Source: an uncultured Methanosarcinales archaeon (GTDB lineage Archaea; Nanobdellota; Nanobdellia; Woesearchaeales; GW2011-AR9). Taken from it: 14,746 nucleotides of DNA. The notes beneath the pieces are model-generated. The model was not told the origin of the DNA. It ran no database searches and saw nothing but the letters and a program-made list of their open reading frames with translations. Each line of letters starts with the position of its first letter. The first letter of the stretch is position 1. The stretch covers positions 1 through 14,746 of the forward strand of contig CAZKNU010000028.1 of the NCBI GenBank assembly GCA_964554235.1, written 5' to 3'. Made by a program: the position numbers and the translations under genes. Positions 8,613 to 11,537 of this stretch are shown one piece after another.

Positions 8613-9049
8613 TTAGCCTGTTCATTGAAACCTAATTCTGCCACATCGTAGGATAAGTTCCTCGCTAAATTTGCAAAACTCAAACACCACGCGGCAGGTG
8701 ATAATTCATCTACAGATACTTCACTTTTTCCTTCTGGCCAAGGAGCTTCGTCGGTGTTAGAATCGCCACCATTTTCATCATCATCAGAATCATCATTAGG
8801 CTCGTATTCTTTAACGTCCAACGATTCTAAAAACTGATGATATACGTCAGTAATAATTTTATTTGCACCACGTTTATTTCTAAATTCACCTAATTTGATA
8901 TACGAATTTAGAACAACATAAGCAGCAACCAGTTTTGCTTCGGACGGTGCATGATACCTTCCCACAATACAGTAAGAAATATCGCCACCGTATAAAATTT
9001 CTCTATCCTCCGGATCAAGGTTTACCAAGGCTTCTGTCAACCAGCGCAT
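8555..9049 (-). CDS. hypothetical acidic protein (164 aa as called; probably longer if the frameshift is corrected)
   Basis: The ORF overlaps the MVP stop by 35 nt in another frame. It contains the acidic tract EPNDDSDDDENGGDSNTDE. No family recognised. Confidence 0.4.
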   Translation of the reverse strand: MRWLTEALVNLDPEDREILYGGDISYCIVGRYHAPSEAKLVAAYVVLNSYIKLGEFRNKRGANKIITDVYHQFLESLDVKEYEPNDDSDDDENGGDSNTDEAPWPEGKSEVSVDELSPAAWCLSFANLARNLSYDVAELGFNEQAKRYQNLVEKYQVLGEIESV

Positions 9050-11537
9050 TGGATAAATACTTGGTCACTACAGGTAATGTGTTTTGCAGGGCTGACCTTA
9101 ACAACTCTTGAATGTTTTCTCCTTCTACAGTTCCTAATTGTCCAACGTGTTGTGCTAATTCTGAGAACAGTTTTTGGTCTCCAAGGCGTGCAGCTGCCGC
9201 AGCTAAGTCAGAAATTTCTTCCGACCATGCACCCATTCTCTGGGCGTAAGCAGCGGCTTCCTCCTGTATTAATACCACTTTTCTTTCGTGCTCCTTTCTT
9301 GCTACTTCTTCATTCACCGCGTATTCAACACCTTTGGCAGCAACCTCAATCTTTTTGGCTTCTGCGAAAGCTTCTGCTTTACCAACCTCTTGCATTTTAC
9401 AAACTAGATTGCCTAACTCTACTGCGGCTATTTTAACATCTTTTTCTCGTTCAAATGCTGCTAAGGCAGTTTCTTCTGTTATCATTCTTAATTTGTTTGT
9501 ATCCTGTTGTATTTTTTGCGTTAACTCTGTTAGCGTATATCCCTGTTGCTCTAACTTCTTTGTAATCTCTGTTTCCTGTTCTTTTTGCCCCAATTCCAAT
9601 TGCTTCAACTGTTTATTAATCTCAATTTCTTGTTCTTTCTGTTCACGTTCTTTCTGCTTCAGGTGTGTAGCCATTTCAATTTCATTCACTTTGTCATCCA
9701 TGTTCATCTCTCTGATTTGTTGAGAGACCGCAAATCCTTGCTTCTTGCTACCCAATTCTTTTTCAAGTAGTTGCCCTTTTAGATCTAAGTCTAACCCCTT
9801 CATAGCTAATTCTTGTTCCCGTTGCAGTTTTACTTCGTTAAACGCTAATGCCATCCTCTCGTTGCTTAAGTTTAACCTAAATGCACTCTGTTCTGCTTCT
9901 GTCAGCAAGTCTGCCAGTTCATCATTTAGAACTGCTACGTTCAGCACTTCCAAATCGTATACTCTCATCCCATTCTCTTTAAAGAACCTTCCAGTCCTTT
10001 GCTCGCCTTCTTTTTTAACTCCTAAGATGGCATCTCTTACCAAATCTATACTATTAGGATAAAATTCGCTAAGTGAAATCTTTTTCACTGCTGACCTCAT
10101 GATTGAACTCAAATGCTCGCAAAGTAAGCCTACATAATCACTGACATCAAACCATTTCTTTGGCTCACCTTCAAAAGAAATTCTGTAAGAAACTTTAACA
10201 TCGAGCTGAATATGCTCCTTGGTTTCAACCGTTACAACATCAGAAACTTTATTACCTTCCTGCTGCAGGAAAACAGTTTCTAGTAGAAGTTTATCGCTCT
10301 TAGGAGTTCCCGTAGAAAACGTTAATTTCTCCAAACTTTCGGAATAATCAAGAATACACCTCTCTGGTCCTTGCACAACCTTTCTTTCTTTCTCTGAAAC
10401 AATCATTGTTGCGTGGTTAGGCGGAACGTAAACTGAAACGGCTTTGCCTTTATCACGGTTAACGACCCCATACAATACTTCAACTGTTTTATCTAAGCTT
10501 CTTTCTACAATGCTTTCTTTTATTGGATTAGGAAGAACGTTTTTAGGCCCCTTAATCGTCTTAATTTCACCGGTGTTCAGATTTCTAACATAAAGCCCTT
10601 CACTTTCAGCCAAGGATATCGGACTTATTTCTCCTCTAAGTTCTATATTTTCATTGGGAAAGAAAAGCCCGTCTTTACCTTCCACAAACAATTCTTGTCC
10701 TATTTTAAACGGTCCGGCACCAATGATATTAGATAAGGGGTCATTTTCTTCAACTTTAAAATCTTTAGTAACATACAAATGCAACCCTCTTTCTGGTTTT
10801 AGCGTCTGCGCCTGAAATATTGCTCTGCTGATCCCGCTAACAACTTTTTCAAGAAGAGTTTCATTGGGAGCTGGAATAACTTGATTAGGCCCAACAATAT
10901 ATTTTTTCTCGCCATTTGGCTCTAATAACACGCAGTATTCTCCAGCCATCAGTTTTACTGCTTTTCTTACAAAATTCCCGTCGTCTTGAGGAACTACTTC
11001 GAGACCGATTGTGGGCATGTAAAAACTTTTTTCTGAGCCTTTGATAATCATTTCAGTGCCAGTTGGAATTGCAGTATCATTCATAGTCGTGTTATTGTAA
11101 GCTCTTATAAGCAAGTATTCGTCTTCTCTTAATTTATGCCCGCTGATTACTTTTGCCGTCTGCCCGGGCCAAAGTGGAAACGTTTTTGGTCCTGGGACTA
11201 CTACTTTTTCACCATAGTTTAACTCTTGTGCTGCATTTATGCCGCGAGAATATTTAGCATCCGGAGAGGTAGTAGGATTTTCTAAGACAATATATTCTGA
11301 ATCTGCAGCAAACACAAAATTGTGCATTGCTTGTTCGTCAGCAAGGCCGACAGGCATTACTTTTCTGGTTTTAGAATCAATGTTTACTAATCTTTCCGTG
11401 TTGGACATACTAATCTTTGCCGGACCAACATAAAGGACAACATCTCCTTTAGTCATGTCCTGCACATAACAGAATTCATTTCCAGCTAAAAGAATATCTC
11501 TCTCCCTTTGATCTCTTATCTCCCTTTGCTCAGCCAT
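9015..11537 (-). CDS. major vault protein (MVP) homolog (840 aa)
   Basis: Full-length collinearity with eukaryotic MVP. The N-terminus has repeated vault-repeat motifs: VLYVGPAKI, VVPGPKTFPLWPGQ, YIVGPNQVIPAPNE and EGLYVRNLNTGEIKTIKGPKNVLP (compare human [24 protein letters not shown]). YVPPNHATMIV...KVVQGPE matches YRVPHNAAVQVYDY...RVVFGPE. The shoulder segment FDVSDYVGLLCEHLSSIMRSAV matches [22 protein letters not shown]. A long E/K/Q-rich coiled coil (cap-helix) follows, then a C-terminal cap-ring-like tail. Confidence 0.85.
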   Translation of the reverse strand: MAEQREIRDQRERDILLAGNEFCYVQDMTKGDVVLYVGPAKISMSNTERLVNIDSKTRKVMPVGLADEQAMHNFVFAADSEYIVLENPTTSPDAKYSRGINAAQELNYGEKVVVPGPKTFPLWPGQTAKVISGHKLREDEYLLIRAYNNTTMNDTAIPTGTEMIIKGSEKSFYMPTIGLEVVPQDDGNFVRKAVKLMAGEYCVLLEPNGEKKYIVGPNQVIPAPNETLLEKVVSGISRAIFQAQTLKPERGLHLYVTKDFKVEENDPLSNIIGAGPFKIGQELFVEGKDGLFFPNENIELRGEISPISLAESEGLYVRNLNTGEIKTIKGPKNVLPNPIKESIVERSLDKTVEVLYGVVNRDKGKAVSVYVPPNHATMIVSEKERKVVQGPERCILDYSESLEKLTFSTGTPKSDKLLLETVFLQQEGNKVSDVVTVETKEHIQLDVKVSYRISFEGEPKKWFDVSDYVGLLCEHLSSIMRSAVKKISLSEFYPNSIDLVRDAILGVKKEGEQRTGRFFKENGMRVYDLEVLNVAVLNDELADLLTEAEQSAFRLNLSNERMALAFNEVKLQREQELAMKGLDLDLKGQLLEKELGSKKQGFAVSQQIREMNMDDKVNEIEMATHLKQKEREQKEQEIEINKQLKQLELGQKEQETEITKKLEQQGYTLTELTQKIQQDTNKLRMITEETALAAFEREKDVKIAAVELGNLVCKMQEVGKAEAFAEAKKIEVAAKGVEYAVNEEVARKEHERKVVLIQEEAAAYAQRMGAWSEEISDLAAAAARLGDQKLFSELAQHVGQLGTVEGENIQELLRSALQNTLPVVTKYLSNALVDRSLGKP

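Follow-up and report, generated by a model that had tools for sequence, protein, structure and literature searches.

Gene content and host of the locus

The window, meaning the whole analysed stretch of 14,746 nucleotides, carries on its reverse strand a major vault protein (MVP) family gene at 9015-11537, assigned from an uninterrupted open reading frame (ORF) of 840 aa with a Pfam MVP_shoulder domain and with MVPs as its PDB sequence matches and its top Foldseek matches. The gene was judged intact and constrained because the ORF, which opens with ATG and whose stop codon (9015-9017) is counted within these coordinates, is uninterrupted, a Shine-Dalgarno sequence (GGAGGT) lies 7 nt upstream of the start codon, residues invariant in the family alignment are kept, the GC content equals that of the flanks in a window of uniform GC, and a second, independent assembly (L168) is identical in sequence across window positions 9048-14746. 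The 3' end overlaps by 35 nt a putative gene taken from the ORF list, an acidic ORF of 164 aa (8555-9049, reverse strand), which gave no match in Pfam, NCBIfam, PADLOC or PHROGs and no homolog in 167 loci encoding MVP relatives. The small downstream ORFs likewise had no homologs beside other MVP genes at these 167 loci, and the idea, put forward in a preliminary description of this DNA, that small unknown genes form part of a system was not supported.

Upstream, a divergent intergenic region (11538-11672) contains the MVP Shine-Dalgarno sequence, two TATA-like boxes in inverted orientation (11604-11613 and 11641-11650), as well as a palindrome, TTTAAACC-N3-GGTTTAAA (11584-11602), which occurs once in the window against 0.03 expected by chance. 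The palindrome is a candidate operator; a conserved operator was rejected, as a search of other loci found it nowhere except in the identical L168. Beyond it lies a gene for a putative regulator of 305 aa (11673-12590, forward strand) with an AbrB/SpoVT N-terminal domain (PF04014, aa 6-50) followed by a PhoU-like helical bundle. Its AlphaFold2 (AF2) model has a pLDDT of 89.6 and PhoU structures gave the best TM-scores; identification as PhoU was rejected, since these fold matches were not significant and the PDB yielded no sequence match. Paired with this gene is one for a Ser/Thr protein kinase of 679 aa (12587-14626, reverse strand; Pkinase domain, E=3e-31).

The host is a DPANN archaeon of the Woesearchaeota type, neither Asgard nor eukaryotic. 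Its Kae1 protein scores 391.7 bits on TIGR03722, over the archaeal equivalog cutoff of 375, and shares 75-81% identity with named proteins from Nanoarchaeota and Woesearchaeota, and L168 prolongs the contig into an archaeal-type S7-S12-NusA-L7Ae-RpoA2-RpoA1-split RpoB cluster, so that the MVP gene is set among core chromosomal genes (Kae1, TGT, GyrB and the RNA polymerase/ribosomal cluster). An Asgard host was rejected because the relatives of Kae1 and of the AbrB-type protein belong to Nanoarchaeota or Woesearchaeota. Eukaryotic or contaminant origin was ruled out by the archaeal Kae1, the RNA polymerase/ribosomal cluster, the uniform GC and the identical second assembly, and the flanking marker genes thereby bear out the archaeal genome proposed in the preliminary description. 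That account had also placed the gene away from mobile elements, and a search of the window indeed found no integrase, transposase or phage gene flanking MVP. An intein in GyrB, at the far end of the window, was the sole mobile-type element found. A defence-island or phage origin was rejected, PADLOC and PHROGs giving only generic kinase-domain matches plus one weak match on a 185-aa ORF. Domains of TEP1 (TROVE) and PARP4 were absent from all scanned ORFs of the window, and a nearby vault RNA or other non-coding RNA was likewise rejected, with no Rfam match at E<=1 and no tRNA-like gene from ARAGORN within the window.

Identification as a major vault protein

The protein is a true MVP relative and is intact, with vault repeats and a shoulder followed by a predicted cap helix and tail. 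Pfam MVP_shoulder (PF11978) matches aa 429-537 with E=5e-30 and 104.4 bits against a cutoff of 25; matches of the single sequence to the repeat profiles Vault_3 (21.7 bits against 28.8) and Vault_4 (19.8 against 22.9) fell below threshold. Using phmmer against the PDB, MVPs only were retrieved, with rat MVP at E=6e-25 (query 142-579 aligned to rat 227-688), and this alignment contains the segment FDVSDYVGLLCEHLSSIMRSAV that the preliminary description had matched to the human MVP shoulder. A 71-sequence family profile matched human MVP with E=2.5e-60, its positions 126-680 aligning to human residues 216-829, R5 through to where the cap ring begins, and it also matched a PDB chain made up of R1-R7 only (E=2.5e-6).

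An AF2 monomer model (mean pLDDT 79.6) was compared with the PDB using Foldseek, and the best matches were MVP chains (E=4e-37 to 2e-30 over 650-815 aligned columns), 30 orders of magnitude ahead of SPFH proteins at about 1e-7; the murine R1-R7 crystal structure was matched with E=7e-14. The reading as an SPFH-only protein was rejected because the repeat region alone, without the shoulder (aa 127-427), matches MVP significantly, its PDB matches being MVPs only (E=1.9e-9, rat R5-R9). The earlier view of a full-length homolog collinear with MVP is supported.

Vault repeats and shoulder

The protein has seven vault repeats, two fewer than the nine of rat and human MVP and not about 1.5 fewer as counted previously, and this seven-repeat short form is common to most close prokaryotic relatives. 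About 125 residues precede profile position 126 (human residue 216), in the place where human MVP carries R1-R4. They were assigned to two N-terminal vault-type repeats, R1-like and R2-like (aa 1-126; 11160-11537, reverse strand), from their conservation and the R2 motif FPLWPGQ, which aligns with rat FPLYPGE. Within the family, conservation is strongest in this segment (columns at least 90% conserved: 31 of 65 in R1 and 24 of 61 in R2); AF2 confidence is low at aa 1-71. Searched alone against the PDB it placed MVPs on top (5 of the 7 matches listed) at a non-significant E=0.25. The assignment of these two repeats, like that of the cap helix and tail, thus rests on the architecture and the predicted structure.

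The five repeats that follow (aa 127-427; 10257-11159, reverse strand) correspond by PDB matches and AF2 approximately to rat and human R5 (or R3), R6, R7, R8 and R9. Residues 16-288 of this segment aligned to rat MVP 227-507, and in the model its repeat units are predicted as five-stranded with pLDDT mostly above 90. The shoulder (aa 428-538; 9924-10256, reverse strand) is SPFH/band-7-like, as indicated by PF11978 and by Foldseek matches to SPFH cage proteins at about 1e-7. Conservation peaks in R1, R2, R9 and the shoulder; in the shoulder, 50 of its 111 columns reach at least 90% conservation. The eukaryotic shoulder has a basic NAD+/ADP-ribose pocket comprising human R507, H509, K573 and others (PMC12280208); in the phmmer and profile alignments these three residues correspond to S414, K416 and E474, and the family consensus at the pocket positions is TPKxD and D/E, unlike the human residues. 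In these alignments the basic residues of the pocket are replaced and not conserved. A hydrophobic 19-residue or transmembrane-like segment was sought throughout the protein and none was found.

Cap helix, insertion and tail

The cap-helix region (aa 539-790; 9168-9923, reverse strand) is predicted by AF2 as helices 539-597 and 618-784, and contains a K/E/Q-rich insertion of 99 aa (aa 557-655; 9573-9869, reverse strand) that is missing from all 70 of the 70 aligned relatives (occupancy 0.03). On this alignment the insertion is specific to the lineage of the window MVP, and because of it the protein is of near-eukaryotic length despite having seven repeats; the previous account, which set a lack of about 1.5 repeats beside a length about 50 aa below that of human MVP, had missed this source. 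An origin by internal duplication of the remaining helix was discounted, the comparison giving no support, as was a tandem-repeat artefact, TRF reporting just one 30-nt array (15-nt unit, 1.9 copies, 9632-9661). Within the insertion pLDDT drops below 50 over aa 590-621.

The C-terminal tail at the cap-ring position (aa 791-840; 9018-9167, reverse strand) is predicted to be helical (787-805, 809-820 and 825-835), and its LGDQ...L.P motifs are conserved in the family. Searched on their own, aa 656-840, comprising most of the cap helix and the tail, gave no significant MVP match, whether the query was the single sequence or a profile, and the tail by itself did not match the cap ring of MVP; the alignment of the full-length profile runs on to human residue 829.

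Prokaryotic family and phylogenetic position

The protein belongs to a large, mostly bacterial family of prokaryotic MVP-like proteins, with 509 clusters (50% identity) matching at E<=1e-30 and members in Myxococcota, Planctomycetota, Acidobacteriota, CPR bacteria and others; prokaryotic homologs are not sporadic, contrary to what the preliminary description supposed of bacterial ones. Archaeal MVPs, of which the preliminary description knew none, are also in print, for Asgard archaea (PMC12962969), as putative vault proteins of Borgs (10.1101/2024.11.05.622173) and as compact forms in a pan-archaeal survey that includes DPANN (PMC13607799). Since prokaryotic relatives were already known to be widespread, the window MVP is another member of a known family. 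With prokaryotic relatives of about 720-790 aa it shares 46-57% identity, and its place is in a small archaeal subclade (100% bootstrap), the nearest non-archaeal relatives being from Planctomycetota, Acidobacteriota and Myxococcota (46-50% identity). In a MAFFT alignment it is 25.8% identical to human MVP, equal to the value for its bacterial relatives, and by this sequence measure (26% identity) it is no nearer to eukaryotic MVP than they are. Related genes of the long form also occur in CPR bacteria and huge phages. Clustering of the neighbours of 48 viral-contig MVPs gave no recurrent gene family, and neither this nor the comparison of the window proteins with the 167 loci brought up a conserved gene for a partner or cargo.

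Proposed assembly and alternative readings

We favour, as a joint and probable reading, that the ORF is a functional, intact and constrained gene of a prokaryotic-type major vault protein on a DPANN core chromosome, and that its product would most likely serve as a self-assembling, shortened vault-like cage. Many copies may pack laterally into a closed homo-oligomeric shell, as do eukaryotic MVP and all structurally characterised SPFH-coiled-coil proteins. The repeats would form a barrel wall two repeats shorter than the rat vault's, the shoulders would make up a ring and the cap helices would bundle into a cap, while the extremely conserved N-terminal repeat would constitute the open rim, the meeting point of two halves or of one half with another surface, and the 99-aa helix-loop-helix insertion may decorate the shoulder-cap junction. 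A cage is suggested because the Foldseek relatives besides MVP are cage-forming SPFH proteins only (prohibitin, HflK/C, flotillin, stomatin and QmcA), R1, R2, R9 and the shoulder are conserved, no transmembrane-like segment is present, and the multimer models in print for Asgard and Borg MVPs are cups or barrels (PMC12962969; 10.1101/2024.11.05.622173). Oligomerisation, symmetry and closure of the particle are here inferred from the gene and the monomer model. Of the prokaryotic vault-like compartment system proposed earlier, the compartment is plausible for the MVP protein itself, and the multi-gene system is unsupported by the neighbours.

The conserved rim could also be read differently, as the base of a half-cage in the manner of SPFH proteins, open and with a single cap, which would rest on a membrane or other surface and would not close into a free two-half vault. 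The shoulder is SPFH-like and the characterised SPFH cages (HflK/C, flotillin, prohibitin and stomatin) are single membrane domes, a subpopulation of eukaryotic vaults is membrane-associated in situ (PMC13100048), and the N-terminal repeat is most conserved yet poorly predicted as a monomer, as expected of an interface. We nevertheless hold this half-cage to be unlikely, given that the protein has no transmembrane or strongly hydrophobic segment and that its architecture and best matches are those of MVP and not of membrane-anchored SPFH proteins. In a manual R1 alignment that no tool confirmed, E48 and R49 also match human E41 and R42; R42 was once proposed among the residues bridging the vault halves, a contact that later structures did not confirm.

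The earlier view that MVP, the AbrB-PhoU-like regulator and the Ser/Thr kinase make up a dedicated three-gene vault system draws on the recurrence of the kinase/AbrB/MVP order in a second DPANN genome, L006 (MVP 41% identical by tblastn and about 44% by MAFFT, AbrB 38%, kinase 31% across 510 aa), on an AbrB-type gene, albeit paralogous, adjoining MVP in L165, and on the unique palindrome between the divergent promoters. When all window proteins were compared by tblastn with the 167 MVP-relative loci, just the AbrB-type gene (L006/L084, L165) and the kinase (L006) were recovered. The AbrB-type family, however, has 173 matches against few archaeal MVPs, is widespread in Woesearchaeota-type genomes and stands also beside non-MVP genes, and in L006 a VapBC-like pair lies between AbrB and MVP. 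The archaeal MVP loci L001, L002 and L166 have neither the AbrB-type gene nor the kinase. The AbrB-kinase pair adjoins the S7-S12-NusA-RNA polymerase cluster in L168, L169 and L170 and is found again in L171, where the gene upstream of AbrB is not MVP; because the pair is conserved in Woesearchaeota, including this locus lacking an adjacent MVP, regulator and kinase are not a dedicated vault system. The link of the AbrB-type regulator to MVP is accordingly weak and the three-gene reading very improbable. A broader version, in which ultra-small DPANN archaea would make, from this one protein, a closed seven-repeat vault-like nanocompartment with defined cargo, controlled by the AbrB-PhoU-like regulator and the kinase, and CPR bacteria and huge phages may do likewise, is also quite improbable; if true, full-length vaults would be a pan-prokaryotic and viral invention, not an Asgard or eukaryotic one. 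Finally, the bacterial affiliation of the nearest non-archaeal relatives and the patchy distribution within DPANN would fit a recently acquired bacterial gene lacking functional integration, or a chimeric or contaminant contig. This is extremely improbable in view of the uniform GC, the intact ORF with its invariant residues, the closest relatives forming an archaeal clade, a window devoid of integrase and transposase, and the independent assembly, 100% identical, in which MVP is linked with archaeal core genes.

Significance

Whether MVP connects Asgard archaea with eukaryotes or represents a pan-archaeal fold is contested between two papers of 2026. The locus provides a full-length seven-repeat MVP in DPANN, placed in an archaeal subclade beside short forms from bacteria; this position, together with the lack of closeness to eukaryotes, speaks against an origin specific to Asgard archaea and in favour of a wide horizontal spread of the prokaryotic MVP family. 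Alone, the window MVP leaves the picture unchanged because the family and archaeal members were already described. It is a compact single-gene candidate for asking whether prokaryotic MVPs make vault-like cages.

Comparison with known systems

Eukaryotic MVP (rat and human; PDB 4V60, 4HL8, 9BW5) shares the order of repeats, SPFH-like shoulder and, on the AF2 prediction, long cap helix and tail, aligns significantly in sequence between R5 and the beginning of the cap helix and is the best structural match. It differs in having nine repeats against seven, at about 26% identity, and the 99-aa insertion occurs only in the window MVP, where S414, K416 and E474 stand in place of the basic residues of the NAD+/ADP-ribose pocket. 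The eukaryotic vault includes TEP1, PARP4 and vault RNA, none of which is in the window, whose host is a DPANN archaeon; rat and human vaults are hollow barrels of 39-fold half-vaults, whereas the window MVP is known from its gene and a monomer prediction. The bacterial MVP-like proteins (Daly 2013, PMC3762200; Sokolskyi 2019, 10.1101/872010) belong to the same family, with 40-50% identity across repeats and shoulder, the same short seven-repeat architecture (about 716-770 aa) and the same extremely conserved N-terminus; the window MVP is set apart from them by its archaeal host, cap-helix insertion and separate archaeal subclade.

Asgard homologues (Kostlbacher et al., Nat Microbiol 2026, PMC12962969) also have repeats, shoulder and cap helix, with a proposed cup-like multimer. 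Compared by description, the Lokiarchaeial representative has five repeats against seven (PMC12962969), the Asgard hosts are of a different phylum from the DPANN host, and half of the Asgard sequences are reported to group with eukaryotes (PMC12962969), whereas the distance of the window MVP to human MVP is the same as that of bacterial relatives. Outside Asgard, the compact archaeal 'MVP repeat + SPFH' proteins, reported from every archaeal group, DPANN among them (PMC13607799), have in common with the window MVP an MVP-repeat fold with an SPFH domain after it; they have 317-396 aa and a single repeat, whereas the window MVP is full-length, its seven repeats being joined by about 250 aa of helix region. 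The putative vault proteins of Borgs (10.1101/2024.11.05.622173) are archaea-associated, MVP-like and predicted to form portions of barrels; again compared by description, their genes lie on extrachromosomal elements of Methanoperedens, in contrast to the window gene between core chromosomal genes. The SPFH cage proteins (HflK/C, prohibitin, flotillin, stomatin and QmcA) are membrane-anchored and lack vault repeats, where the window MVP has seven repeats and no hydrophobic segment, but they share with it the shoulder fold leading into a coiled coil (Foldseek about 1e-7), and lateral packing into a closed dome is probably a principle common to both.

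Identity and domain architecture of the MVP-like protein

The MVP-like ORF (9015-11537, minus strand) is uninterrupted, starts with ATG, encodes 840 residues (hereafter the window MVP) and carries a GGAGGT ribosome-binding site 7 nt upstream of its start. Sequence comparison and structure prediction agree in assigning it to the major vault protein (MVP) family. The Pfam MVP_shoulder model covers aa 429-537 at 104 bits (cutoff 25), the single-sequence Pfam matches to Vault_3 and Vault_4 being under threshold. A phmmer search against all PDB sequences returned major vault proteins only (E=6e-25), aligning residues 142-579 with rat MVP 227-688, and the motif pair quoted in the preliminary description as shared with MVP is contained in this alignment. 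A family profile built from 71 relatives matched human MVP with E=2.5e-60 (profile 126-680 to human 216-829) and also matched a chain comprising only R1-R7 (E=2.5e-6; vault repeats numbered as in rat and human MVP). The likeness is not confined to the shoulder, the case that the preliminary description had regarded as telling against its proposal: the repeats without the shoulder (aa 127-427) retrieved only MVPs from the PDB (E=1.9e-9) and were aligned to rat 227-507, corresponding to R5-R9. The AlphaFold2 monomer was predicted with a mean pLDDT of 79.6, exceeding 90 over most of aa 130-550, and Foldseek comparison with the PDB placed MVP chains at the top (E=4e-37 to 2e-30, 650-815 aligned columns), followed by R1-R7 fragments (~1e-13) and then SPFH cage proteins (~1e-7). 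When the first 135 residues were used as a family profile, MVP repeats led the PDB list, but with E=0.25, and aa 656-840 (the cap helix after the insertion described below, and the tail) yielded no MVP match, either alone or as a profile. These two segments were assigned as MVP on the basis of their position, the predicted long helix and local motifs; one local motif of the protein reads FPLWPGQ, compared with FPLYPGE in rat MVP.

These comparisons show both how the domains of the window MVP are arranged and that it belongs to the family. Profile position 126 corresponds to human 216, the start of R5, and approximately 125 residues occupy the place of vertebrate R1-R4. Judged by the strands of the model, these residues comprise two repeats, giving seven in total, two fewer than in rat and human MVP. 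The repeats are followed by the shoulder (aa 428-538) and, in the AlphaFold2 model, by helices at aa 539-597 and 618-784 and a helical tail at aa 787-835. Conservation peaks in R1 (31 of 65 columns conserved at 90% or more), followed by R2, R9 and the shoulder, the helix being the least conserved. Close relatives measure 716-790 aa, and the length of 840 aa is reached solely through a K/E/Q-rich insertion (aa 557-655) that is missing in all 70 aligned relatives and is also present in a second assembly, which is 100% identical over window 9048-14746. An origin of the insertion by duplication of the rest of the helix found no support, and a substantial tandem repeat at the DNA level was likewise rejected, as TRF detected within the insertion no more than a 30-nt array (1.9 copies of a 15-nt unit). 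In P0005, a close relative of 866 aa, columns 250-440 of the family alignment (A1) contain extra tandem R6-like repeats, in which YVRxAxKLxxGEYCxLL...GP occurs three times, indicating that repeat number varies within the family by recent internal duplication. Where the human NAD+/ADP-ribose pocket has the basic residues R507, H509 and K573 (PMC12280208), the alignments to rat MVP and of the family profile to human MVP place S414, K416 and E474 of the window MVP, and the human pocket is thus not conserved.

Genomic setting and host

GC content is uniform across the window (0.31-0.41), with no step at the MVP gene, and no ncRNA was found when the window was examined for such genes. On the minus strand lie a GyrB gene (492-3716) with an intein of ~420 aa (Intein_splicing match at aa 450-872, HNH homing-endonuclease motif), a 238-aa ORF (4025-4741) and an archaeal Kae1 gene identified by family-model match (4738-5688), the latter two overlapping by 4 nt. 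The N-terminus of the 238-aa ORF resembles a lipoprotein signal (MKHELLLCSLLAGC), and a family-model scan of this ORF returned no match. The Kae1 protein clears the archaeal equivalog model and shares 75-81% identity with proteins recorded as Nanoarchaeota archaeon or Candidatus Woesearchaeota; similarly, the 305-aa protein with an AbrB/SpoVT N-terminal domain encoded divergently from the MVP gene (11673-12590, plus strand) has 173 relatives, of which the named ones are nearly all Nanoarchaeota or Woesearchaeota. A 20-kb ENA contig (L168) matches the window exactly where the two overlap and extends into genes for S7, S12, NusA, L7Ae, RpoA2, RpoA1 and a split RpoB. Taken together, these relatives and this cluster assign the MVP gene to the core chromosome of a DPANN host and rule out an Asgard or eukaryotic host.

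The gene at 5787-6902 (plus strand) encodes a queuine tRNA-ribosyltransferase (TGT) of the bacterial/eukaryotic type, not an archaeosine TGT (TIGR00430, 427 bits, above cutoff). At another archaeal MVP locus (L002), a queuosine-salvage gene (PF10343; L002:14580-15536) lies 4 kb from the MVP gene, and this pairing of functions is probably a coincidence.

Neighbouring genes

A 679-aa Ser/Thr kinase gene (12587-14626, minus strand) is convergent with the AbrB-type gene. The preliminary description had noted a dedicated regulator and a Ser/Thr kinase beside the MVP gene. The order kinase, AbrB, MVP is seen again in the Nanoarchaeota H41 MAG (L006, the same sequence as L084), where identity to the window proteins is 41% for the MVP by tblastn (~44% when aligned with MAFFT), 38% for the AbrB protein and 31% for the kinase, and where a putative VapBC-like pair (L006:9168-9854), made up of a PIN-type ORF and a small opposite-strand ORF, separates the AbrB-type and MVP genes. 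At another locus (L165), a paralogous AbrB-type gene is convergent to the MVP gene. The AbrB-PhoU-like gene and its convergent kinase, overlapping by a few bases (window 11673-14626), form a conserved Woesearchaeota-type pair (L168-L171, L006) that adjoins the S7-S12-NusA-L7Ae-RNA polymerase cluster in most loci (L168-L170). At L171 a gene other than MVP lies upstream of the AbrB gene, and other archaeal MVP loci are without both the AbrB and the kinase gene. The regulator and kinase accordingly do not constitute a module dedicated to the vault; they may be tied to the MVP by looser regulation. The model of the AbrB-type protein (pLDDT 89.6) comprises an AbrB hairpin, a small alpha/beta domain and a helical bundle, for which PhoU proteins gave the top TM-scores, these matches not being significant.

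The intergenic region from which the MVP and AbrB genes diverge contains a perfect palindrome at 11584-11602, TTTAAACC-N3-GGTTTAAA, flanked by inverted TTTATATA boxes at 11604-11613 and 11641-11650. It occurs once in the window, against a chance expectation of 0.03, and searches of related loci did not recover it. The four small unannotated ORFs downstream of the MVP gene (6903-9049, minus strand) gave no family match and have no counterpart at other MVP loci. Two of these, of 70 aa (6903-7115) and 185 aa (7112-7669), overlap by 4 nt, the latter containing the motif GTEDIDLII, which is nucleotidyltransferase-like, and matching the PADLOC model PDC-M21B weakly (E=7e-5); judged by these sequence features, they may be a toxin-antitoxin-like pair.

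Distribution and phylogeny of the family

A word-indexed search with the window MVP retrieved 414 relatives and an exhaustive search 1065 clusters (50% identity) at E<=1e-3, or 509 at E<=1e-30, falling into a short (~716-790 aa) and a long (~820-930 aa) size class. Carriers among species-representative genomes comprise Myxococcota, Planctomycetota, Acidobacteriota, Sericytochromatia, Eremiobacterota, Xenobia, CPR bacteria (Parcubacteria, Saccharibacteria), one Nanoarchaeota MAG and MAGs labelled Methanosarcinales (GCA_964354285.1 and GCA_964647565.1 are so labelled). The CPR genes are of the long form (L049, L066, L071, L083) and, together with the DPANN gene, indicate that both ultra-small episymbiont groups possess the family. 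The closest relatives (52-57% identity) are encoded on contigs that also bear archaeal genes, among them L32e, L19e, eIF-1A and Spt5; those relatives that are genome-resolved (L004/L001, L005/L002 and L079, including one contig of 585 kb and 40% GC) carry the record label 'uncultured Methanosarcinales archaeon'. Should this label be right, DPANN and Methanosarcinales would share the MVP subclade, suggesting transfer between archaea. In a bootstrapped neighbour-joining tree, in which the deep nodes were not resolved, the window MVP grouped within an archaeal subclade (100% support) that left out the Nanoarchaeota H41 MVP and a third archaeal sequence. Over human MVP 216-829, all prokaryotic MVPs are 21-28% identical to the human protein; the window MVP, at 25.8%, is therefore not specially eukaryote-like.

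Long-form MVP-like genes (median ~866 aa, 30-38% identity) were also observed on 48 predicted viral contigs of IMG/VR (L172-L219), many of 100-500 kb, with no recurring neighbour family beside the MVP gene. Some of these contigs have a bacterial appearance (L207 encodes a PAS histidine kinase), so that some may be misclassified as viral. Searches by tblastn with the window MVP also gave matches in LR756501.1 and LR756503.1, the largest huge-phage genomes on deposit (735 kb each; 735,411 bp), and in the 462-kb phage LR756500.1. The ORF at 5977-8406 of L220 (LR756501.1 11695-25584) encodes 809 aa, matches MVP_shoulder (99.9 bits) and Vault_3 (43 bits, above its cutoff), and has a putative phage metallopeptidase gene just 5' of it. 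Among the papers searched, none linked MVP to huge or jumbo phages. In a single case, a 470-kb phage-like contig (L174), a NADAR-domain gene (4018-4854, plus strand; PF08719, 175 bits) lies immediately 5' of the MVP-like gene (4929-7370). NADAR proteins are associated with the processing of ADP-ribose, and the adjacency is of note because binding of NAD+/ADP-ribose is a property of eukaryotic vaults, which also house PARP4 and the NADase TEP1.

Proposed assembly and comparison with known systems

By analogy with MVP and SPFH cages, its only structural relatives, the window MVP would most likely pack laterally into a closed homo-oligomeric shell. Its barrel would be shorter than that of the rat or human vault, the conserved N-terminal repeat would provide the rim interface, and the insertion (aa 557-655) would decorate the base of the cap. 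Shell assembly is likewise suggested by multimer models published for the Asgard and Borg proteins (PMC12962969; 10.1101/2024.11.05.622173). Such a shell might be either a free vault of two halves or a single dome on a surface.

Bacterial MVP homologs have been in the literature since 2013 and 2019 (PMC3762200; 10.1101/872010), and Borg MVPs were described in 2024 (10.1101/2024.11.05.622173). The window MVP adds to this known family and is not a new kind of system. A literature search for a full-length MVP in DPANN found no paper, and the protein bears on the dispute between an Asgard-specific and a broader origin of MVP. The representative of the ten Asgard MVPs reported in 2026 has five repeats (PMC12962969), whereas the window MVP has seven, and the proteins combining MVP repeats with SPFH that a 2026 survey found in all archaeal groups, including DPANN, are 317-396 aa long (PMC13607799), compared with 840 aa for the window MVP.
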